Below are positions 1 through 9,795 of a stretch of 9,795 nt of DNA, piece after piece. Numbering within the stretch: position 1 is the first letter of the stretch; every line of letters starts with the position of its first letter. The DNA lies in IMG/VR virus record IMGVR_UViG_2711768052_000007, positions 1 to 9,795 of that record. The stretch is one strand, 5' to 3'. The notes beneath the pieces were generated by a model. That model had not been told where the DNA came from. It made no database searches and worked only from the letters and a program-made list of their open reading frames with translations. This DNA is from a virus. Lineage: Duplodnaviria > Heunggongvirae > Uroviricota > Caudoviricetes. The position numbers were made by a program, and so were the translations under genes.

Positions 1-564
1 TCAACGACTGCGCTTAGCGTGGCGCTCCCAGTTTTCTTGCTTCGCCTGCGCCGTTTTACGTAGTGCGACGTAACACGCCCCGCTGCCGCCATGATGCGGT
101 AGCGCAGTGCAATATGCCTGAACATCATCAAATTCGGTCAGCCAGCGCGCCACATAGCTGCGGACAATATTGGCATGCGATTTATCATCCCGTCCTTTGC
201 CATGAATAATCAGCACGTTACGCAAACCATCAGCCATGGCTTGTTGAATGAAACTGAACATCATTTTGCGGCACTCTTCCACCGGCTGGCGCAAAAGATT
301 CAGGCTCGCCTGTTGCGGATATTTACCACTGCGCAGCTTATCCAGCACCCCATGTTGCAACCCTTCCCGCCGAAACTCCAGCGGCTGACTTAGTGGGATG
401 ATGTCGAGAAATCCGGTGGTGAGGAAATTATCAAGCTGCAGCGTGTCGATACGCTGCGGCGCACGTTGGTTACGCGTTGGATGCCAGTGGACATCGGTAG
501 CACGTTTCAGCGGCTGGACATCTTCCATGGCGTCAAGAAACAGCGATTTGTCGTCAAGGTTCAT
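1..564 (-). CDS. smrA: Smr-domain protein SmrA (YdaL), probable DNA endonuclease
   Basis: Complete 187-aa ORF (ATG at 564-562, stop at 3-1). The translation matches E. coli SmrA/YdaL as I recall it, including length. SD-like GGAGGATG lies upstream at about 568-575. Confidence 0.85.
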   Translation of the reverse strand: MNLDDKSLFLDAMEDVQPLKRATDVHWHPTRNQRAPQRIDTLQLDNFLTTGFLDIIPLSQPLEFRREGLQHGVLDKLRSGKYPQQASLNLLRQPVEECRKMMFSFIQQAMADGLRNVLIIHGKGRDDKSHANIVRSYVARWLTEFDDVQAYCTALPHHGGSGACYVALRKTAQAKQENWERHAKRSR

Positions 565-1297
565 GTTACATCCTCCCGCAATTAAGAGCGCGATATGATA
601 ACCAGACCGGGTCGGTCCAACAACGTATTACCCAAAATTCCAGTAATAAGTTCCAAATATTGCCGATATTTTAAGCAAAATGCTTATGCATGATTATTCA
701 TTCACGATATTTATAATTAAATGCGCATAACTTATTGAATTTAACCAACAAACATCGCTGCAAATAACGTTAAAAATCGCAAATTAACTACACCATTAAC
801 TACACCGTTCGGTGCACTGTATGCAACAATGCGGAACAAATAGACACAAGCGACGGGCTATACCGTTATCATTTTCCGGCTATCCGCCATGAAGCTGGTG
901 GATGATCACGGATAAACCGTTATGGAAGTCCCCATATCGGCATCATGCCCACCAGCGAGATTAGTTATCTGGTTGCTGATGGGAGGCTGACGAACCTCGA
1001 TGCTAGGGTGCGCAAAACTAGTGAGACCTTTTTTCTCTGCAACAGGCCCATAATTCGCGTTTTCTTTGTCTGCCGTAAGGTGGGGGATTTTTGGCGGATC
1101 CAGCAATGGCGCGGATTTTGTGATTTTTTATAGATAGACCTCATCTATCAATCCCGTGCACACCTTCCCAAAAAAAGTTTTCGAACCTGCGGCGATGAGA
1201 ACAAGGGTAGGCGGGCGGTCCCATAAGCAATGGAGTGTAGGGATTCCGATCCCCCTGGGGGTATTAAACGCCCCACCCTATTTAAATACCGTCTTTT

Positions 1298-1339
1298 TTG
1301 TCACTGGTTGTCACTCTCCGTCACGGTATGTCACCACAA
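1298..1339. repeat. Four GTCAC-containing units phased exactly every 10 bp (candidate integrase arm-type or Xis/AlpA-type binding array)
   Basis: GTCAC occurs at 1300, 1310, 1320 and 1330 (ttGTCACtgg, ttGTCACtct, ccGTCACggt, atGTCACcac), directly 3' of the last island gene. It resembles the lambda Int arm-type consensus (A/C)AGTCACTAT, recalled from memory. Confidence 0.4.
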
Positions 1340-1340
1340 G

Positions 1341-1625
1341 TTAACGTCGTAACCGTTCCGGCTTCTTCCACTGGTAAGTAATTTTTTCTTTCTCCCGGTA
1401 CATCTCTACGCGGCGACGGTATGACAACATCTCCAGAACTCTGGTTCGTATATCGCGCATATCCACGCCGTTAAGCTCAATACCATCACGGCGCATCACC
1501 TCAGCCACTACACGCGCGTAATTTTCGGCTATCACGCTGTCCGGCTGCGTGGCCTCCTGTTTGCCTGTTGTCTGGCTGGCTCCGGTAACGCGGCGAATTA
1601 TTTTGAGCATTTCGGCTTCGGTCAT
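1341..1625 (-). CDS. Hypothetical protein (94 aa) downstream of the small-terminase-like gene
   Basis: ORF with internal ATG at 1625-1623 preceded by GGAGG with about 8 nt spacing. The longer track ORF (to 1715) has no RBS. I do not recognise a family. Confidence 0.5.
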   Translation of the reverse strand: MTEAEMLKIIRRVTGASQTTGKQEATQPDSVIAENYARVVAEVMRRDGIELNGVDMRDIRTRVLEMLSYRRRVEMYREKEKITYQWKKPERLRR

Positions 1626-1770
1626 GGTTATGGCCTCCGTGGTGATGGGAAACAATGCCGTAATTGTGGCGGGTCCTTCTTGGAAAATGAAATACCGGGG
1701 TAGCCATACGCGCAATTCTTAACTGTTTATGAAAATTTTTCGAGTTCCACTCCCGGTTTTTTTATGACCT

Positions 1771-1791
1771 AACCAATTGATTAAATTGGTT
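1771..1791. promoter_or_regulatory. Perfect 8-bp inverted repeat AACCAATT-N5-AATTGGTT (operator-like)
   Basis: Read directly from the sequence, in the 215-bp gap between the terS-like stop (1840) and the next gene start (1625). Confidence 0.3.
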
Positions 1792-1839
1792 TTAAATATC
1801 AAATCAACCGGAAGTCTGACCAGTTGAGGGAAATGATGA

Positions 1840-2301
1840 TCAGGTGTCGTTTTGCCTGATTAATTTACGCTTCTTTTTGTTTTCATTTGTGTGTTTTTTA
1901 AGGCGTTTTAATGTCAGTTCTCGCCCGATCTCAATTCCCTGCGCTCTGCCCCTAGCCTGTGCGATCTCGTCCGGTGAATAACCGTAAATTTCCAGACCTT
2001 TATTAAATTTTTTTTCGTACTCTTGTTTGTCTTCTTCTTCACCAACCATACTCAACATGATTTCACGCGAATGCATAATGCAATCAAGCGGATGAAGTTC
2101 GCCAGTCATACCCAGTTCTTTGAGTCCTTCCTGTCCTCTTACCCAAAAAAGAACATGTCCTAACTGGTAGCGCCCCGGCTTTCCTTTATCTCCTTCAATG
2201 AATGGCAAACCGCGTTTAGTCCATGCCCTGACAGTTGTCCTGTCTACTCCAAATTGATCTGCTATTTCCTGCTGGCTTAAGAAAAATTCTTTTTCACTCA
2301 T
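1840..2301 (-). CDS. Terminase small subunit-like packaging protein (Nu1-type N-terminal winged-HTH, divergent C-terminus)
   Basis: The N-terminus (LSQQEIADQFGVDRTTVRAWTKRGLPFIEGDKGKPGRY) aligns with lambda Nu1 (KKQLADIFGASIRTIQNWQEQGMPVLRGGGKGNEVLY). The track ORF begins at a TTG (2337); the ATG at 2301-2299 (MSEKEFF) matches the Nu1 N-terminus better. The gene lies immediately downstream of a cos-like site. Confidence 0.7.
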   Translation of the reverse strand: MSEKEFFLSQQEIADQFGVDRTTVRAWTKRGLPFIEGDKGKPGRYQLGHVLFWVRGQEGLKELGMTGELHPLDCIMHSREIMLSMVGEEEDKQEYEKKFNKGLEIYGYSPDEIAQARGRAQGIEIGRELTLKRLKKHTNENKKKRKLIRQNDT

Positions 2302-2379
2302 AATGTTACCAATAATTACTGGTTGAATATTAATCAAGTGGTGGTGGTGTACCCTTTCCCGGAAAGCGTCATAAATAGC

Positions 2380-2440
2380 GCTTTTTTGCGCGTCTGCCGC
2401 CCCGTAACCTTTCGGATCGCCGGAAAGGACCCGTAAAAAA
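2380..2440 (-). other. Lambda-type cos site (cosQ-proximal sequence, cosN-like 12-mer, start of cosB)
   Basis: Minus strand reads ACGGGTCCTTTCCGGCGATCCGAAAGGTTACG|GGGCGGCAGACG|CGC...GCGCTATTTATGA. The lambda genome ends and start, as I recall them, read ...ACGGGTCCTTTCCGGTGATCCGACAGGTTACG|GGGCGGCGACCT|CGCGGGTTTTCGCTATTTATGA. The cosN-like 12-mer is at 2391-2402 (plus coordinates). Confidence 0.7.
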
Positions 2441-2456
2441 GCCGGATTTCTCCGGC
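2435..2456 (-). terminator. Putative intrinsic terminator after the 137-aa gene, overlapping the cosQ-proximal region
   Basis: On the minus strand, hairpin GCCGGA-gaaa-TCCGGC is followed by TTTTTT, 7 bp after the stop at 2463. It may instead be part of cos architecture. Confidence 0.35.
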
Positions 2457-2462
2457 CTTGTC

Positions 2463-2876
2463 TCAGATGGTTTTCAGTATGCGATCGATGTCGTCGTCAT
2501 CACCCGGATTTCTTCCATCGTATTCCATGCCACCTGACACTGCTTTGGGGCTGTGCATATCCATAAAGTTTTCAAAGGCTGCAGTAAGCTCCGGCGGAAC
2601 CTTCGGGCGTTCCTGCTCTATGGTCATGTTCAGGATGTCTCTTGCCCCTTCAACATCGATACAAGGAACATTCGCCATTGCACGCAACATCGGCTGATAT
2701 TCGGCTGCTTCATGAAGCGCCATAATCGCATCAGCGCGCGGCTTGTCCTGTTCTTCCAGTTTGTTCAATCGGTGTATGGCTTCGTAGGTTGATAAACCTC
2801 TGTCAGCCATTGCCCGCGCTTCGGCCTTAAATTTACTCGCCAGCGGTAGCGCCATGATCTCTTCATTGATTGCCAT
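2463..2876 (-). CDS. Hypothetical protein (137 aa, acidic C-terminus) between the decoration gene and cos
   Basis: ORF with ATG at 2876-2874 preceded by AGGGGGGA. The track ORF extends to 2930 but that extension overlaps the upstream gene and has no RBS. Family not recognised. Confidence 0.5.
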   Translation of the reverse strand: MAINEEIMALPLASKFKAEARAMADRGLSTYEAIHRLNKLEEQDKPRADAIMALHEAAEYQPMLRAMANVPCIDVEGARDILNMTIEQERPKVPPELTAAFENFMDMHSPKAVSGGMEYDGRNPGDDDDIDRILKTI

Positions 2877-2889
2877 CGTTCCCCCCTGC

Positions 2890-3225
2890 TTATCGTGCCA
2901 GCGGCTGAACGGATACGCCAGAACCCGCAAAGGCAGCGCATTTTTTCGCGTCAGTATCGACGCTCTCGGGCCAGTTAACGACGGCGATATTGAATATCCC
3001 CGTCTTGTAACACTGTGCAGATTTTTGTTTTGCCGTGTCCAGTGGGTAGGAGGTCAGATAAATGGCCTTGCCTGACTCCTGACCGCCCCACGCCTTAAAC
3101 TCGCCGTTCTCCGTCATCATCAGCGGGGTAAGCTCGGGAATAACTCCGGCATCAGCGGCAAAGTGTACCAGCGTAGTGGAAACCTGCTGTGTACCGGACA
3201 ATAATTCAACATATGGAACGCCCAT
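2890..3225 (-). CDS. Head decoration protein (lambda gpD-like)
   Basis: 111 aa. TPLMMTENGEFKAWGG...CYKTGIFNIAVVNWPES...KKCAAFAG aligns with lambda D (TPLMLDTSSRKLVAWDG...FYKSGTFRYEDVLWPEA...KRTAFAG). ATG at 3225 is preceded by GGGGGA. Confidence 0.8.
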   Translation of the reverse strand: MGVPYVELLSGTQQVSTTLVHFAADAGVIPELTPLMMTENGEFKAWGGQESGKAIYLTSYPLDTAKQKSAQCYKTGIFNIAVVNWPESVDTDAKKCAAFAGSGVSVQPLAR

Positions 3226-3236
3226 AAAATCCCCCG

Positions 3237-4292
3237 TTAACCAATTTTTACGGTAACAAATTTGCGGATATCTGCCGGAACCGGCTGTGGTGCGCTGTGC
3301 GTCTGCACGTATTCAATCGACGGATCGCCGCCCTCAATCCAGTTTTTCGGGTAGTACATGTTTCGCGTTGCGCCAGTTCTTACCGCTTCCTGATCCATAA
3401 TCGCGCCATAGGCCACCAGTCCTTTATTGCTGGTATTACCCAGAACAAGCAAATCAGGCTCAAGGAAATATTTTTCCGTTCCGTCGCCGTCAGTGTATTT
3501 ACCGGAATAAACGATAAGGGCCAGATCGCCAAGATAGCCTTTAAAGCTCACCACTTCGCCCAGGTTTTTACACGCCAGCTCTGCGGCGGATTCTGAACCA
3601 CGGGAAAGATCGTACAGTTCACGAAATTTTTTAAAGCTGCGTAACGTGCGCCATACCTCAACGCCCATAATCATGACGTTGGCGGGGCAACCTGCCTGAT
3701 CGGTGTACAGTTCGATGTCATAAATTGGATCGTGCGTTTCCTTGTCAGCCTCTGACCACTTTTTACCTTGTCCCTGCGTAATGATGTTTTTAGTCGGGAT
3801 TTTCCAGTCGATTTCGTATCGATTTATACCTTCGCCTTCAATGATGTTTTTCCCGGTCGTGACTGCATTCACCGCCAGCCATTCCACACGCGCTTTAATG
3901 GAATTTACCTGGCGGCGCATGTTGCCCGTAATCAGGCGCATACGACGGTATGTAGGGTCGTTAAGCTGTGCTGGATCTTCACCAGCCATGCGTATGATGG
4001 TTTTTGATGGATCGATTTCGTGTTTGGGTTTCATGTAGCCAGGGCGGATAGTGCTTGTTTCGTACCCTTTATCTCGCTGAACCTGGCTACCCACCATAGG
4101 CGAACAAAACGCCGACATGGTGACTTCTTCAATATCCAGGGTATCTAACATGATGTCCTGCGTGTTGAAGGTCGCCACGTTCGGGAAAAACAGCGACGTA
4201 AACAGCGGACTAAATTTAAAATCTGGAATATCCTGGCGATTCAGATATGTAAAAAGCTGATGCGTGTTAAGCGCCTGCGCTTTGTCTGTCAT
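3237..4292 (-). CDS. Major capsid protein (lambda gpE-like)
   Basis: 351 aa with conserved blocks shared with lambda E: FKFSPLF, PGYMKPKHE, EDPAQLNDPTYRRMR, VVSFKGYLGDLALIVYSGKY, VLGNT, YPKNW, GDP, SAP. The start ATG overlaps the upstream stop (ATGA). Confidence 0.9.
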   Translation of the reverse strand: MTDKAQALNTHQLFTYLNRQDIPDFKFSPLFTSLFFPNVATFNTQDIMLDTLDIEEVTMSAFCSPMVGSQVQRDKGYETSTIRPGYMKPKHEIDPSKTIIRMAGEDPAQLNDPTYRRMRLITGNMRRQVNSIKARVEWLAVNAVTTGKNIIEGEGINRYEIDWKIPTKNIITQGQGKKWSEADKETHDPIYDIELYTDQAGCPANVMIMGVEVWRTLRSFKKFRELYDLSRGSESAAELACKNLGEVVSFKGYLGDLALIVYSGKYTDGDGTEKYFLEPDLLVLGNTSNKGLVAYGAIMDQEAVRTGATRNMYYPKNWIEGGDPSIEYVQTHSAPQPVPADIRKFVTVKIG

Positions 4293-4498
4293 TGCTCACC
4301 CCCATGAGTCTGATTCATGCCAAGCGCAGCGCGTAAATGGCTGCGTACCATCCAACCAACTGACGGCTTCACCATGCACAACGGATCAAGGCCGACTTTT
4401 TTGCCTGCTTCTGCGTTCTCCTCAAAGCGCGCATTAAGTGCCGCGATAATATCGGGGCTGATGTATACGGATACACCGCCCAGCTTCTGTGTTCCCAT
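4289..4498 (-). CDS. Hypothetical small protein (69 aa), translationally coupled to the capsid gene
   Basis: ATG at 4498-4496 is preceded by AGAGGA, and the stop overlaps the capsid ATG. The upstream part of the track ORF (to 4564) has no RBS. Confidence 0.4.
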   Translation of the reverse strand: MGTQKLGGVSVYISPDIIAALNARFEENAEAGKKVGLDPLCMVKPSVGWMVRSHLRAALGMNQTHGGEQ

Positions 4499-4550
4499 AA
4501 ATGAAATTCCTCTTTGACTAAAAAACAAACATAACGAAAAATCAGTCATG

Positions 4551-4580
4551 ATTTTAATCATCATTGCATTTTTTGCAATG
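4551..4580 (-). promoter_or_regulatory. Putative sigma70-type promoter for the head/packaging operon with an overlapping inverted repeat
   Basis: On the minus strand, -35 TTGCAA (4578-4573), 16-bp spacer, -10 TAAAAT (4556-4551). The 7-bp inverted repeat CATTGCA-N5-TGCAATG (4562-4580) overlaps the -35 and spacer. Confidence 0.3.
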
Positions 4581-4675
4581 CAATTGACTATTATTGCAAA
4601 TCATGAAAGTATAATTCCGCGGTTTTACCTTGTATCGTAGAGTTGTTAGCATCAATCACGTTAACGGCATGAAAT

Positions 4676-4709
4676 CCCCCCGGAACCTCATCCCGGGGGG
4701 ATTTTTTTT
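4676..4709 (+). terminator. Strong plus-strand intrinsic terminator
   Basis: 8-bp GC stem CCCCCCGG/CCGGGGGG (4676-4683 / 4693-4700) with a 9-nt loop, followed by A and T8 (4702-4709). Confidence 0.6.
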
Positions 4710-4713
4710 GCGC

Positions 4714-4741
4714 ACAAAAAAGCCGTGAAAAATCCCGGCTT
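4714..4741 (-). terminator. Minus-strand intrinsic terminator after the SSB-like gene
   Basis: On the minus strand, hairpin AAGCCG-N10-CGGCTT is followed by TTTTTT. It lies about 15 bp downstream of the alternative-frame TAA stop at 4758-4756. Confidence 0.45.
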
Positions 4742-4755
4742 CTGTCACTCGTTGC

Positions 4756-5122
4756 TTAAAACGGTATGTTATCCCCGTACGGATCATCATTTCCCGCCTG
4801 TTGTTTTGCCCTGTTCAGTGCGTCAGTAGCCTGGCCCTGTTGACCTTTTTTGCCGCCCGGGCGCGCCGTTCTGGCCTGTCCACTGGCTTACCTGCATGTT
4901 ACCCGCCACGCTCACAAGTTCGCCTTTCTGGTGCTTTGCCAGTGCGTCGGCCTGTCTGCCAAACGCCAGGACGGATAACCACATCGTCGCCGTTCCGTCA
5001 TCTGCCTGGCTGCACGGCAGGGGAACCGCCATACTCGCCATCGCCATTTGTGTCCCTTTGCTGGTGGTCTTTAACTGCGGGTCAGCCACCAGCCGCCCGT
5101 AAGCCGCTATCTGTGCTGTCAT
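4756..5122 (-). CDS. SSB-like single-stranded DNA-binding protein with an apparent +1 frameshift near an A6 tract
   Basis: The track ORF (4823..5122) shows an SSB-like OB-fold pattern (GRLVADPQL..., WLSVLAFGRQADALAKHQKGELVSVAGNMQVSQWTGQNG versus E. coli SSB [40 protein letters not shown]). The +1 frame downstream of the A6 run (4846-4851) continues to ...AGNDDPYGDNIPF and stops at 4758-4756. IPF is the hallmark C-terminal tip of bacterial SSBs. Confidence 0.5.
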
Positions 5123-5370
5123 GATTCCACCTCTCCGGTTTTAACATTGATGGTTGTCACCTGTTCCGCTTCGGCAATCTCCCGTTCTGTCAGCGTGGCA
5201 AAGTTTGCTGCCGCCGTGGTCATGAATGCGCTTATCAGTTCGGGGTGTGCTTTCGCGTATCCTTCCCCGGCATGGCGGTCTATCGTTCTGATTGCCACCT
5301 TTAAGGCGTGCTCTGTCATGTCTAATGCGCGATATTTTGGCGCTGTCTTATCTCTGGTTTTTCTGGTCAT
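5119..5370 (-). CDS. Hypothetical protein (83 aa) between the origin and the SSB-like gene
   Basis: ORF with ATG at 5370. Its stop overlaps the SSB-like ATG (ATGA). No family recognised. Confidence 0.45.
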   Translation of the reverse strand: MTRKTRDKTAPKYRALDMTEHALKVAIRTIDRHAGEGYAKAHPELISAFMTTAAANFATLTEREIAEAEQVTTINVKTGEVES

Positions 5371-5379
5371 TCCTCACTG

Positions 5380-5573
5380 CTCCCCACTTTTACTACCCAC
5401 TTTTTGAAATTACCCAACGTCTCCCCACTTCTTTTTTTTGTGATTCTAACGTGATGTTTTTCAATGTATTTTTTATTCCCCACTTTTTGGGGTATATACA
5501 GGTGGGAAAGTGGGGAATCGCGTTTCAATTTTGTTAAATTCCCCATACTCCCCACTTTTACTACCCACTTTTT
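5380..5573. repeat. Iteron-type origin of replication candidate
   Basis: An identical 26-bp direct repeat CTCCCCACTTTTACTACCCACTTTTT occurs at 5380-5405 and 5548-5573. The short motif TCCCCACTT occurs at 5381, 5422, 5477 and 5549, with an inverted copy AAGTGGGGA at 5508-5516. An AT-rich spacer lies at 5431-5476. The region is immediately 3' of the Rep-type gene. Confidence 0.6.
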
Positions 5574-6987
5574 ACAGTGGGCGCACGTCATCACCGTCAA
5601 TAGCAATAACGCCATCACCTTCCAGCTTGTACAGCCAGCGCCGGAAGTGTTTCATCTCATACCCCAGCTTTTTCATATCATCGCGCAACAACGGAATTGT
5701 GCATTTATCGCCGCGCTGTGTGCGTGAACGGATACAGCCCCATAGCGCGGCATGATTCTCCGTCTTGTTCCCGGCTTCCTCGATGCGCTCCAGTTCAACG
5801 GGTGGGCGCGGTTTATCCACAACCACCAGCGACGTGATTAACTCCTTGTCAGCGTCGGTAAAAAGCTCCACCACACGTAAATCGTATGCAGCCTCTTTCA
5901 GTTCCTCCGCGTCCTTCATTTTGGTGCAGGAGATAACCAGGGCTTCACTGTCTGCACCTTCACGGCGAATACGGTATTCAGCGTCCAGAGATGCACGAAA
6001 TGCACTGGAACCACGCGCCCCCTTTGTTTCATCCTTGCCGGAATGGTGAACCACCAGCACCGTGGCCCCTGTGCGGCGTTTCAGTTCGTCACATCCACGG
6101 ATAAACGCCCCCATATCCCGCGCGTCATTTTCATCATTACCGCCAAAGCAACGCGCCAGCGTATCAAGAATAATCATGCGTACCGGTTTACCCGTTTCCC
6201 GTTCAACCTGGCGGGAAGCGATGACCATTTCATCAACATCAAGCGGGACTGCCGGAAAAATCGGGCGGTTTACCAGGTACAGATTTTCCACCCGTTCATC
6301 ATTAACGATTTCCCATGCCTTGATACGGCGGGGGACACCAATGCCACCTTCACCGACAACATACATCACCGAACCATGCGCCACCCTGCGGCCTCCCCAG
6401 TGACGGCCAGTGGCAACATGACACGCCCAGGAACACGCGAGGAACGATTTATAGGAACCGCTCGCGCCGTATGTGCTGCACAATGAATTAGCCGGAATCA
6501 CGCCCTTAACGACATAATCAAGCTGTGTGTCGTACCCTGCAGATCCAATGCTCATTGGTAGCGTGGTTTTTCGCTGGCTGTATTGCTCGTCAGTAAGTAT
6601 TTCCCCGCGCTCTGCCTGTTCGCGGATCCGTTGCAGGTAGTCGTGCCAGTTCTCCAGCTTCTGGCTGTGCATTCCATCAGGGTAATAATTCGCATCCCGT
6701 ACACCTGCCGCCGCCAGCTTTTGCCCGATAGCATTAATATTTGACGGCTTGATGTGGCCTGCCTTGTACAGCCGGACACAATAGCGACCATCGTCGATGA
6801 TTTTCAGGTCTGCCAGTTCGTCAAGCTGGCTGTCTCCAAGCCATACGGGTGGCACGTTGTCGCCAGCAAGTCGCCCGTCCTGTTCCTGCCATTGTTTCGC
6901 GTGCGCCCAGGCATCACTACCCGCAAAAATAATGACTTCGGTCATTTTGTCGTGTGGCTGTTTTTTTAAGTTCGGTGCCAGTTTCAT
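5572..6987 (-). CDS. Replication initiator / helicase-type ATPase (RecA-like P-loop NTPase with C-terminal winged-helix)
   Basis: 471 aa with a Walker A-like YGASGSYKSF, then MIILDTLAR and VLVVHHSGKDETKG blocks typical of RepA/DnaB-like satellite and plasmid replication ATPases. The C-terminus looks like a DNA-binding domain. The start ATG overlaps the upstream stop (ATGA). Confidence 0.75.
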   Translation of the reverse strand: MKLAPNLKKQPHDKMTEVIIFAGSDAWAHAKQWQEQDGRLAGDNVPPVWLGDSQLDELADLKIIDDGRYCVRLYKAGHIKPSNINAIGQKLAAAGVRDANYYPDGMHSQKLENWHDYLQRIREQAERGEILTDEQYSQRKTTLPMSIGSAGYDTQLDYVVKGVIPANSLCSTYGASGSYKSFLACSWACHVATGRHWGGRRVAHGSVMYVVGEGGIGVPRRIKAWEIVNDERVENLYLVNRPIFPAVPLDVDEMVIASRQVERETGKPVRMIILDTLARCFGGNDENDARDMGAFIRGCDELKRRTGATVLVVHHSGKDETKGARGSSAFRASLDAEYRIRREGADSEALVISCTKMKDAEELKEAAYDLRVVELFTDADKELITSLVVVDKPRPPVELERIEEAGNKTENHAALWGCIRSRTQRGDKCTIPLLRDDMKKLGYEMKHFRRWLYKLEGDGVIAIDGDDVRPL

Positions 6988-7283
6988 TTTTTACCCCTGA
7001 ATGCGTTAATCATGTTTTTCATTTTCTGAATATTTGCCCGTGCCTTTGCGTTGCTGGTGGGCTGTTTGCGTGGTGTGGCCTGTATCAGTGAAAAATCACG
7101 CCGGAACTGATAAACAGGCATCACGCAGTCATAACCGTACCCATCACGGCGGTAAGTAACGCACCGTCCCGCCACGCTTTTAATCGTTACCGTGCCGCCG
7201 TAGTTATCCCGGAAAATATCGCCGGGGCGGATTTCAGGCCGAGCGGGGCCGCTGGCAGTAAAGCCAGAATTTTTCTTTTTCAT
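6984..7283 (-). CDS. Hypothetical protein (99 aa, basic C-terminal tail), translationally coupled to the rep gene
   Basis: ATG at 7283 is preceded by AGAGGA. No family recognised. Confidence 0.5.
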   Translation of the reverse strand: MKKKNSGFTASGPARPEIRPGDIFRDNYGGTVTIKSVAGRCVTYRRDGYGYDCVMPVYQFRRDFSLIQATPRKQPTSNAKARANIQKMKNMINAFRGKK

Positions 7284-7288
7284 GGTTT

Positions 7289-7498
7289 TTATTCCTCTGC
7301 GCGGGTCTTGTCGTGTATTTCCATAACCGCGTTTAATTCATCAATAACCGGGGTTAACAGAGTGCTGAAAGCAGAAAATAAATCCCCCCCCCGTTCGGCA
7401 TGAACTTCGGTTAATTTAATTAATACCGCTTTCATTTCCAGTGCCCGGTTTAATGCATTCTCAGAATGAATAAGAACATCGAAAGGGATTTTATCCAT
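7289..7498 (-). CDS. Hypothetical small helical protein (69 aa) containing a G10 homopolymer
   Basis: ATG at 7498 overlaps the upstream gene end by 8 nt. A run of 10 C (plus strand 7383-7392) lies inside the ORF. No family recognised. Confidence 0.4.
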   Translation of the reverse strand: MDKIPFDVLIHSENALNRALEMKAVLIKLTEVHAERGGDLFSAFSTLLTPVIDELNAVMEIHDKTRAEE

Positions 7499-7957
7499 GG
7501 CTTACATCCTCCGTGAATTTTCTTCTGTACCGTGCCTCTGCCACATATTCAGCATAGTCCGACGCAATAATAAGAATATCGTTGCCGGTTCCTGAATGTT
7601 CAGCGGTTCCAATTAAAAAACATGCGGCCTTTATCAGGTCATTAACAGCCAGCAACGCATCGCCTGTATCATCCGGTGCGCCATCAAATTCCTGTTTCAG
7701 GGCATTAAAACGATCATCACGCATAACCCCCCCCCATTTTCACAATCAGCAATCAGGATGGCTTTGGCCTCATTCAGTGCCATATCAGCGGTAAGCTGTG
7801 CGTAGGCCAGCGAATGGGGGATTATTGCCCCTGTATACTCCGGCTCTCTGGTAATGTGTTTTTCTGCGGTTGCTGCCGTGCATGAAATATCAATCAGCGC
7901 GTGCATCAGCGTAGTGAGCGCGGCGGCTGCTGCGTCCGGACGTGGGTTATTGCACAT
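7491..7957 (-). pseudogene. Hypothetical protein split into two ORFs at a G9 homopolymer (frameshifted or phase-variable)
   Basis: ATG at 7957-7955 has a strong RBS (AGGAGGT, 5-nt spacer). The frame runs to a stop at 7699-7697 just after the G9 tract (plus-strand C9 at 7727-7735). The 77-aa ORF 7491..7724 continues in the +1 frame, and one extra G would fuse both into about 157 aa. Confidence 0.4.
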
Positions 7958-8249
7958 GGCGCACCTCCTGACGAATACGGGCGGCGAATACAGCGACACA
8001 ACCGGACGGGCAACGGTTACGCGCTTCGCGTTCTGTCCATGCGGTGACGTGGATGATTTGAGATTCTCCGGCACTCAGTGCCAGAAAACGCCACACAAAG
8101 GCCGTTTGTGTGTGCGCTAGGCGTGGGGTATGCTGTGTTCCAGCCATAATCGTTACCTCGTTTAACGGTTTGGTTAGAAGCCCCGTTACTGCTCCAACAG
8201 TGCGGGGCTTCGTCGTTTCAATTGCTGAATTGCATGTATCAGCCCTTGT

Positions 8250-8316
8250 GGTATTCAGATTACATTTTGGTGAATACCATTTCAAGTCTTTTTTGGTATT
8301 CACTTTTGTATTACAC
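8250..8316. promoter_or_regulatory. Operator-like repeats GGTATTCA(C) upstream of the ribbon-helix-helix gene
   Basis: GGTATTCA at 8250-8257; a perfect 9-bp inverted pair GTGAATACC (8270-8278) and GGTATTCAC (8295-8303); a degenerate copy GTATTACAC at 8308-8316. A candidate -10 TATTAAT lies at 8327-8333. Confidence 0.35.
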
Positions 8317-8346
8317 TGCATCCCGTTATTAATCGGAGGTGCAAAC

Positions 8347-8652
8347 ATGTCCACGAGTTCTGTTAACAATAAGTCACAGCAACTGAATGCCAGATTTCCA
8401 CATGAAGTAGTGAGTGGCATTGAGGCATCCCTACAGCCAGGGGAAACTAAAGCGAATTTTATAGTTACGGCTGTACGCGGTGAGATCGCCCGCCGCCAGG
8501 CAGAAGGAAGCGGAGAAAATCCCCTGGTTTCTTCGCTCGATGCACTGGCGCAGGTGGAAAAAATCGGAGTCAAAGCAGCCGAGGAGATCGGGCAACTCGT
8601 CACCGTCGCGCGTGAAGAACTCCAGCGCCGCAAGGCCAAAGAGCAGGAATAG
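8347..8652 (+). CDS. Ribbon-helix-helix (Arc/CopG-like) DNA-binding protein, putative island regulator
   Basis: 101 aa with a strong RBS (GGAGGTG, 5-nt spacer). The N-terminus (QQLNARFPHEVVSGIEASL...ANFIVTAVRGEIARR) fits the beta-strand plus two-helix RHH pattern. It is the only convincing plus-strand gene in the island. Confidence 0.55.
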   Translation: MSTSSVNNKSQQLNARFPHEVVSGIEASLQPGETKANFIVTAVRGEIARRQAEGSGENPLVSSLDALAQVEKIGVKAAEEIGQLVTVAREELQRRKAKEQE

Positions 8653-8656
8653 CCCC

Positions 8657-8675
8657 ACCGGAATTTTTTTCCGGT
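8657..8675. terminator. Hairpin between convergent genes (possible bidirectional terminator)
   Basis: ACCGGAA-TTTTT-TTCCGGT lies 5 bp after the RHH stop and abuts an out-of-frame minus-strand TAA. There is no long U-tract on either side. Confidence 0.3.
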
Positions 8676-9143
8676 TACGCTTTGCCCACCAGCCGCAAAT
8701 GTGGCATTGTTGGTGATGCGTTCAAGTTTGATTTGCCGTAATACCCACTGGCGACCCTTTGCGGTCGCCTTTGTTTTGCCTGTTATCCGGCAATTGTGGC
8801 GCTTCGCCACACGGTTGATATAATCCCACTGCTCAGATTCATTTTTTGCGCAGTAGGTTAATTGTTCGCAAGGGCGCTCCGGCAACGGGGCGCTTTTTGT
8901 TTTTATTAGTTTGTAGAAAACTGACTCAGAGATAATGCTCATATTCTGATTGCCGTCAGGGGGGTAAGTTAAATTTACTCCCTTTTCATCAAGCATCTGC
9001 AACGCTCTGGCGTTAATAATATTGGTTTCACTCCCGCCAATAAGGCCGGAAATAACCGGAATAATTTCAGCGAAATTTTGCAGATTCTGGTTTTCAGGCC
9101 GAACGAAGCCCCGCCCCTGTACAGGCGTATATCCAGTATTCAT
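8675..9143 (-). CDS. Hypothetical protein with a weak Bro-N/Ant-like motif; C-terminal frame unresolved
   Basis: ATG at 9143. The first 150 residues or so look protein-like, and ISESVFYKLIKTKSAP resembles the SESGLYxLIxRSRKPEA motif of Bro-N/Ant-type proteins. The in-frame ORF has no stop until 7947 and runs antisense through the RHH gene; a TAA in the +1 frame at 8677-8675 is the likely true end. Confidence 0.4.
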
Positions 9144-9195
9144 GGTTAAATCTCTGTATTAGTGGATGGGTGGCGGCTGTGTGCCGCCAGCCTGA

Positions 9196-9384
9196 TTAGT
9201 GAACTGCCTCGCGGCTGTCCTTCCATGCCAGAACTTCGGATAAAGACCAGCCAACGGAACGACCACCGAGTTTACGCCGTGATGGGAATTGTCCAGTCTT
9301 CTCCAGGCGATACCGACATGAGCGGCTCAGGCCTGTAAGTTGCTGACATTCTTTTTCACGTATAAAGCGATCTGTGCTTAACAC
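9196..9384 (-). CDS. alpA: AlpA-family (Xis-like HTH) transcriptional regulator
   Basis: The C-terminal 62 aa (VLSTDRFIREKECQQLTGLSRSCRYRLEKTGQFPSRRKLGGRSVGWSLSEVLAWKDSRE) matches the AlpA pattern. A GTG start at 9384-9382 is preceded by AAGGGGGA. The track ORF's upstream 36 codons are low-complexity and lack an RBS. Confidence 0.7.
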   Translation of the reverse strand: MLSTDRFIREKECQQLTGLSRSCRYRLEKTGQFPSRRKLGGRSVGWSLSEVLAWKDSREAVH

Positions 9385-9680
9385 AATTCCCCCTTTGTTG
9401 TTTCTTAAAGAGTCATTGGGTGGATTATTGGGTTGGGTTGTGTCGGATTGTGTCAGGGTGTTTATGGAATGGCAAACACTGGTGGCGGTCATTTTACAGA
9501 AGTGGGGGTAGTGAGAATAAAAATCCTTTTAATTCATTATGATGTAAAGGCATAAAATTCTGTTTTTACGCCTTTTTTACATGTTTTTAAGAGTGATTCG
9601 CCAATGTACAAAAAGCCAGTAAAACGACTGAAAATCAACTTTTTAGGGTGTCAGTCAGATGATAATCAAGTTTGTTCCAG

Positions 9681-9730
9681 ATTGTTCGCCGTTGTTCGTC
9701 GTGGTGTCTCGTTGTTTCACGTTGTGTCCG
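9681..9730. repeat. Five degenerate direct repeats phased every 10 bp (candidate recombination or regulatory protein binding array)
   Basis: attgttcgcc / gttgttcgtc / gtggtgtctc / gttgtttcac / gttgtgtccg, in non-coding DNA about 300 bp to the right of alpA. All three minus-strand frames hit stops within 60 nt of the window end, so no integrase 3' end is present. Confidence 0.35.
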
Positions 9731-9795
9731 TTCTAAAAAATCGCAAAAAAAATTATATTTCTCTGGCTATTGGCAGTGTGGTTACGTTTTCGTGA

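Follow-up and report, generated by a model that had tools for sequence, protein, structure and literature searches.

Introduction

Phase-variable tracts of poly-G or poly-C are known as contingency loci in Neisseria, Haemophilus and Campylobacter. In Escherichia coli, all 9-nt Shine-Dalgarno (SD) variants have been measured and poly(G) tracts were found to initiate strongly, an effect ascribed to pairing through G.U wobbles in a number of registers (Kuo et al. 2020, Genome Res, PMC7263185). Phage-inducible chromosomal islands (PICIs) and capsid-forming PICIs (cfPICIs) have been defined by de Sousa et al. 2023 (PMC10085698). Here we analyse G-runs that precede genes of an integrated phage-satellite island within a 9,795-nt stretch of viral DNA (IMG/VR record IMGVR_UViG_2711768052_000007, positions 1–9,795; the window, whose coordinates are used throughout). 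An initial annotation of the window had read these runs as the ribosome-binding sites of several island genes and as prone to slippage. We find that they are very probably functional SD sequences of the poly-G, G.U-wobble class, and that GGGGG serves as an SD much more frequently in this satellite lineage than in its E. coli host.

Results

G-runs at the start codons of island genes

Four plus-strand C-runs, at 2881–2886 (C6), 3231–3235, 4299–4303 and 9389–9393 (C5 each), lie upstream of minus-strand genes at exactly the coordinates given by the initial annotation, and each reads on the coding strand as a G-run 4 to 6 nt before a start codon. The G6 at 2881–2886 precedes a 137-aa gene (p137; 2463–2876, minus strand) in the arrangement GGGGGG-AACG-ATG, with a 4-nt spacer and the start at 2876, and falls within the 13-nt spacer that follows the stop codon of the head decoration gene (2890–2892). 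The decoration gene (2890–3225, minus strand) is preceded by the G5 at 3231–3235 (GGGGG-ATTTT-ATG; 5-nt spacer; start at 3225), which lies within the 11-nt spacer after the capsid stop codon (3237–3239). At the major capsid gene (3237–4292, minus strand) the putative SD is GGGGGTGA at 4296–4303, with its G5 at 4299–4303 (GGGGG-TGAGCA-ATG; 6-nt spacer; start at 4292) inside the final codons (HGGEQ*) of an upstream 69-aa gene. The fourth run, the G5 at 9389–9393, precedes the GTG start of alpA (9196–9384, minus strand) as GGGGG-AATT-GTG, with a 4-nt spacer and the start at 9384. The proposed consensus GGGGG(G)A holds at three of these sites and fails at the capsid site, which reads GGGGGTGA and which the initial annotation had itself described as matching less cleanly.

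The lengths of all four genes equal those called by the Prokaryotic Genome Annotation Pipeline (PGAP) in two related islands, where homologues of the 137-aa gene are 414 nt long and alpA is the same 189-nt gene with a GTG start, and they agree with Pfam and PHROG coverage. The sequence ahead of these genes in the two relatives is of a similar kind. The spacers of 4, 5, 6 and 4 nt are within the interval of about 4–9 nt by which an SD precedes a genuine start. A fifth site, which the initial annotation had missed, is a G9 at 7727–7735 (minus strand), located 2 nt before the ATG of a 77-aa gene (p77; 7491–7724, minus strand; start at 7724) and in the 3' end of an Icd-like open reading frame (ORF) at 7736–7957 (minus strand).

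A G5 run is lacking at the remaining nine of the 14 minus-strand genes, and several of them have a clear GGAGG, GAGGA or AGGTGG. The sites of repA and of an 83-aa ORF (p83) contain G4, and terS has no recognisable SD. The G-run is thus not an island-wide signature, being present at only four to five of 14 genes. We also considered evasion of GGAG-specific RNases or of CsrA, and dropped it because other island genes keep GGAG or GGA.

Predicted pairing with 16S rRNA

The four runs are complementary to the CCUCC core of the 16S rRNA 3' end, with predicted free energies for the SD:anti-SD duplex with GAUCACCUCCUUA of -10.7 kcal/mol for p137, -8.6 for decoration, -14.5 for capsid and -10.7 for alpA. 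These values fall within the top 1–21% of 136 annotated E. coli K-12 genes (median -6.2), with the capsid site, where predicted pairing extends through GGGGGUGA, in the top 1%; the predicted value for the G9 site of p77 is -12.7. Placed in the same A-rich flanking context, GGGGG is predicted to pair at -10.7 kcal/mol and GGAGG at -11.6 kcal/mol. GGGGG would pair with the CCUCC core as GGAGG does, the central A-U pair being replaced by a G.U wobble.

Comparison with the host and with lambdoid phages

The K-12 genes are the annotated coding sequences of three 50-kb stretches, with runs counted in positions -18 to -1 relative to the start. A G5 precedes only one of these 136 genes, GGAGG precedes nine, and a run of at least four G's precedes eight; the endogenous frequencies reported for E. 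coli are 73 of 4566 (1.6%) for GGGGG and 327 of 4566 (7.2%) for GGAGG (Kuo et al. 2020, PMC7263185). Host genes are thus seldom preceded by the motif, and the initial annotation's own refuting condition, that it be frequent there, does not hold. In the island there is a G5 at four of 14 starts, or five of 14 with p77, and a run of at least four G's at seven of 14, such that G5 SDs are about 20-fold over-represented relative to the host. Fisher tests against the K-12 sample give p=2e-4 (4/14), 2e-5 (5/14) and 5e-5 (at least four G's, 7/14), and a binomial test of the island G5 starts against 1.6% gives 6e-5.

The island capsid protein shares 43–46% identity with its counterparts in lambda, phage 21 and Gifsy-1, and the capsid and decoration homologues of these phages have sites of the GGAGG or AAGGA type, not G5, which indicates that the trait was not inherited from them. 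Across their head and tail genes a G5 SD is present in 4 of 44, and the island excess is weaker when set against these (p=0.09).

Coding-strand runs of at least five G's are frequent in the island as a whole (1341–9500), at about 1.1 per kb compared with 0.24 per kb per strand in K-12, a difference of about 4.5-fold. Lambdoid head and tail regions have about 0.85 coding-strand runs per kb and are strongly asymmetric, with 8–13 such runs on the coding strand per 13 kb and 1–3 on the other. These densities would suit an explanation in which the pattern is a compositional accident of an island rich in G-runs, but the runs are not placed as this predicts: there are nine in the island and five of them abut a start codon, whereas random placement of the same number puts 0.17 next to a start, and five were reached in 0 of 100,000 permutations (P<1e-5). 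The permutation test excludes pure chance. The sites are moreover kept at the same position in more than 80 relatives while the flanking coding sequence diverges, and we regard an accident of composition as scarcely credible.

Conservation among related islands

Relatives were taken as the 80 IMG/VR contigs whose capsid protein is at least 89% identical to that of the window, and sites were counted over 82 island sequences, comprising these contigs, the island of E. coli DA61218 and the window. The initial annotation had proposed a check of conservation in related islands, and the same sites do recur there, reading GGGGG, GGAGG, GGTGG or G4 to G7. The capsid site is GGGGG in 66, GGAGG in 12, GGTGG in two and G7 in two; the decoration site is G5 in 56, G6 in 12, GGTGG in nine, GGGAG in three and TGGGG in two. 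At p137 we find G5 (51), G4 (16), G6 (4) and G3 (3), and at alpA G5 (12), G6 (2) and G7 (1). Homologous sites in the 82 sequences thus keep their anti-SD pairing despite sequence change, and the interchange of G and A at the run's central position is expected of an SD and argues against a need for a homopolymer as such. Taken together, the position of the runs, their strong predicted 16S pairing and this interchange bear out the proposal that they are ribosome-binding sites.

Relatives also have G5 SDs that the window lacks, including ones at the 94-aa ORF, Icd-like genes and perC, and in two PGAP-annotated relatives a run of at least five G's is present in positions -18 to -1 at 6 of 17 and 6 of 19 genes. 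A capsid-protein scan of one genome per species found no relative.

G5 SDs recur at multiple genes within this element and across its family, which could alternatively mean that the runs are a common element for a trans-acting regulator, for instance an RNA-binding protein or a small C-rich RNA, through which late-gene and alpA translation would be co-ordinated; one related island is listed as having a ProQ/FinO-family gene. The window, however, has no ProQ/FinO gene, a search around the runs for an extended motif found nothing common beyond the G's, and GGAGG or GGTGG replaces GGGGG in relatives, all of which speak against such a regulator. The best promoter-like site for alpA is downstream of the only nearby same-strand C5 (9508–9504), and with respect to masking of the alpA SD by leader structure, the predicted fold is no better than that of shuffled sequences (z=0.14). 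We consider a shared regulator very improbable.

The capsid start is also the site of a shared junction. The 15-nt sequence TGGGGGTGAGCAATG (window 4290–4304), in which the upstream ORF ends GGEQ* with an ATGA overlap, is identical at positions 5867–5881 of locus L169 from E. coli UTAK-5, where it precedes a non-homologous gene for a ClpP-protease/capsid fusion and the surrounding sequence otherwise aligns poorly. It may mark a point at which modules have been exchanged.

Length variation and the longer G tracts

The runs were also described in the initial annotation as prone to slippage, and this is supported by single-G indels at the decoration, p137 and alpA sites and by G4 to G11 variation at a longer tract. 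Tract lengths were compared between loci, and the differences may be biological or may be assembly errors at homopolymers. The G6 variants at decoration and p137 and the G6 and G7 variants at alpA are true one-base insertions in which the flanks shift by one, whereas G4 at p137 and GGAGG or GGTGG at capsid are substitutions.

Variation is much greater at two longer tracts, the first of them that before p77. In the GAAAAT-Gn-TT-ATG context, in sequences from the 80 loci, uninterrupted tracts are G8 (22), G7 (11), G9 (8), G10 (4), G4 (3) and G11 (1), and two further loci have the tract interrupted by a T. With G8 there are two overlapping genes (ATGCGTGA); with G4, G7 or G10 the Icd-like ORF is fused to p77 in a product of about 154 aa, which fits the 154-aa family phrog_2512; and the G9 of the window lengthens the Icd-like tail. 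In a second upstream context, p77 of related loci is preceded by CATTCA-G6/7/10-TAAAC-ATG, likewise a candidate G-run SD. Another tract, an in-frame G9 at 7384–7392 (minus strand) in the small ORF p69b (7289–7498, minus strand), encodes RGGD. Among nine tract-bearing close homologues this tract is G5, G7, G8 or G9 and three are frameshifted, possibly through sequencing error; in distant homologues of about 60% identity it is absent.

Such variation raises the alternative that the runs are contingency (phase-variable) tracts in which replication slippage alters SD strength or the spacing between SD and start, so that the output of capsid, decoration, scaffold or AlpA would vary heritably and reversibly. 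In keeping with this, close relatives differ in length at the decoration, p137, alpA, p77 and p69b tracts, with single-G indels at decoration (G6 in 12/82), p137 (G6 in 4/74) and alpA (G6 or G7 in 3/15) and with the longer tracts of the island family ranging over G4–G11 and G5–G9. Frequent slippage, however, calls for about 7 nt or more, a length attained here only by the G9 tracts at 7727–7735 and 7384–7392, and five or six G's is short for efficient slippage in mismatch-repair-proficient E. coli. Every length seen at the SD runs retains a usable predicted SD at workable spacing, such that no ON/OFF switch is predicted; many of the variants are substitutions (GGAGG, GGTGG, GGGGA), not indels; and at the capsid run, which falls within a coding region, there are no indels. 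Phase variation at these runs is accordingly, in our judgement, distinctly unlikely.

Gene content of the window

Positions 1–1340 are 99.2% identical to E. coli chromosomes, which identifies the host as E. coli, and include SmrA coding sequence (1–564, minus strand). The integrated phage-satellite island extends from about 1340 to the end of the window, with nearly all of its genes on the minus strand, and no tRNA gene was found in the window. The nearest relative in a complete genome is that of E. coli DA61218, which is 91.8% identical over 74% with identical gene order, and in which PGAP places an integrase just beyond alpA.

The leftmost island gene is the 94-aa ORF (1341–1625, minus strand), followed by a terS-like gene (1840–2301, minus strand) with sub-threshold Pfam and PHROG matches. 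PGAP calls a terminase small subunit at this position in relatives; the window version is divergent and is present in only 17 of 81 loci, and its orthology to the relatives' gene is therefore putative. The 137-aa protein, encoded by what is probably a scaffold gene (Nu3-like), matches phrog_1999 (E=1.6e-58) and also the C-terminal (scaffold) part of phrog_53, a head-maturation-protease family (positions 494–567 of 583). The decoration protein belongs to the lambda gpD family (Pfam HDPD, E=1e-14; phrog_49, E=7.8e-23) and the major capsid protein to the lambda gpE family (Pfam Phage_cap_E, E=2.5e-50). The order of the head genes in the island (2463–4292) is capsid, decoration and scaffold-like gene, the reverse of the protease/scaffold, D, E order of lambda, phage 21 and Gifsy-1, and portal and protease genes are absent from the island.

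Upstream of the capsid gene are the 69-aa ORF (4289–4498, minus strand), whose stop codon overlaps the capsid start (ATGA), SSB (4823–5122, minus strand) and p83 (5119–5370, minus strand). The AT-rich capsid-operon promoter region at 4540–4610 contains TTGCAA-containing repeats (TTTTTTGCAATGCAATTGAC...TTATTGCAAATCATG) that are conserved in an alignment of relatives and may act as an operator in the control of late genes. A predicted terminator-like structure separates the capsid operon from the SSB gene: a CCCCCC-N13-GGGGGG hairpin at 4676–4700 that has T8 after it on the plus strand and A-rich sequence before it on the minus strand. The G6 of this hairpin belongs to the stem and is not a ribosome-binding site; an ORF of only four codons opens at the ATG 5 nt after the run.

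Further along are a RepA-type helicase gene (AAA_25 by Pfam; 5572–6987, minus strand), DUF4222 (6984–7283, minus strand), p69b, p77 and the Icd-like ORF. The p77 product belongs to a 77-aa family (phrog_24341, E=7.9e-37) and also matches the C-terminal half of phrog_2512 (positions 78–153 of 154). Between the helicase gene and the next gene, at 5361–5575, TCCCCACTTT(T) and TTTTACTACCCACTTTTT are repeated in both direct and inverted orientation; these repeats look like the iterons of a replication origin and supply many of the window's C4 runs. A YlcI/YnfO-like gene is on the plus strand (8347–8652). A 398-aa minus-strand frame at 7947–9143, which runs antisense through the latter, was not counted as a gene, having no Pfam match and not being called by PGAP in relatives; its first approximately 160 codons (9143 to about 8660) might nevertheless be a real gene. 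The alpA regulator gene encodes a 62-aa product (Pfam Phage_AlpA, E=2.7e-18). Upstream of it, at 9640–9760, is a cluster of GTTGT(T/G)(T/C)C-like repeats (ATTGTTCGCCGTTGTTCGTCGTGGTGTCTCGTTGTTTCACGTTGTGTCCGTTC) that may include sites for a regulator or arm sites for the integrase. The island's left edge has a palindrome, CCCCC-T-GGGGG (1251–1261), and three GTCAC(T/C/G) repeats at 1295–1340 (TGTCACTGGTTGTCACTCTCCGTCACGGTATGTCACC); these may be recombinase, packaging or att-related sites.

Discussion

We interpret the G5 and G6 runs of this satellite as functional SD sequences of the poly-G, G.U-wobble class, a reading in which we have high confidence, and we infer that ribosomes actually use them. 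The structural genes are separated by 11–13-nt spacers or by the ATGA overlap, and the runs would provide strong initiation at three tightly packed structural genes (capsid, decoration and scaffold-like) and at alpA with its GTG start. Drift would occur through substitutions that give GGAGG or GGTGG and through slippage of one G that gives G4, G6 or G7, with ribosome pairing kept. Standard SD pairing with a G.U wobble suffices for this, and no special mechanism is needed.

Several observations weigh against this interpretation or narrow it. The predicted local accessibility of the G-run SDs is lower than that at most other island genes, with a mean unpaired probability of 0.27–0.38 compared with 0.41–0.76. 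The related loci are phylogenetically non-independent, and fractions across the family make independent events look more numerous than they are. In a relative whose head module differs, containing the ClpP-capsid fusion, sites with at least five G's are present at only 1 of 16 genes, which indicates that the trait belongs to one lineage or module and not to satellites generally. Finally, SD function alone does not account for the approximately 20-fold excess over the host. We suggest that tolerated drift, or selection for initiation that is strong and flexible in register, underlies the preference, and not a dedicated regulator; the over-representation is a modest, real but mechanistically ordinary compositional quirk of one PICI-type lineage.

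There are some practical consequences. Gene callers and ribosome-binding-site models trained on AGGAGG-type sites can misplace starts here, for example the GTG of alpA and the ATG of the 137-aa gene, and the excess is a small compositional signature that might help to recognise related modules. The excess of G5 SDs has gone unremarked in the full-text literature joining phage-inducible chromosomal island with Shine-Dalgarno, in which no paper, judged by title and abstract, concerns E. coli PICIs. The variable G7 to G11 tracts of the early region are a more curious by-product. One could imagine that the lineage uses G-homopolymers more broadly as slippage-tunable expression elements, making them contingency loci inside a phage satellite; poly-G SDs would then set capsid, decoration, scaffold and AlpA output, and the G7 to G11 tracts would control whether the Icd-like ORF and p77 are fused and whether p69b is on or off. 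We think this quite unlikely.

With regard to its class, the island resembles the enterobacterial PICIs (PMC10085698) in having alpA, a RepA-type helicase with adjacent iteron-like repeats, and capsid-like and terS-like genes, with these genes in one orientation, inserted beside smrA in E. coli, and with a tyrosine integrase just beyond alpA in relatives. It differs in that its capsid module has the complete lambda-type complement (gpE-like capsid, gpD-like decoration and scaffold-like protein) and in that the integrase is outside the window. The PICI core set of integrase, AlpA-type regulator, primase/replicase, capsid-like gene and terS is represented, the integrase through relatives and terS through sub-threshold matches. 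Among the window ORFs no Pfam or PHROG match was found to a portal, terL or a head-tail adaptor or connector, and since these are absent the cfPICI definition does not apply; the predicted gene set fits a PICI, not a cfPICI.

Similar comparisons can be drawn for the runs themselves. As in the contingency tracts of Neisseria, Haemophilus and Campylobacter, the island G-runs are length-polymorphic, and the two longer tracts (G7 to G11) shift frames; in contrast to those systems, the SD runs are only 5–6 nt, keep an SD at each length and have no evident ON/OFF logic. There is also a parallel with the poly(G) SDs of Kuo et al. (PMC7263185), since the island runs lie 4–6 nt before the start and are predicted to pair with CCUCC through G.U wobble. 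Initiation was measured in that work and is predicted from sequence at the island sites, which are natural, are concentrated in one mobile element (four to five of 14 genes) and are kept across relatives. They would thus be naturally occurring cases of a type of SD, poly-G, that work with synthetic libraries found to be strong but rare in E. coli.

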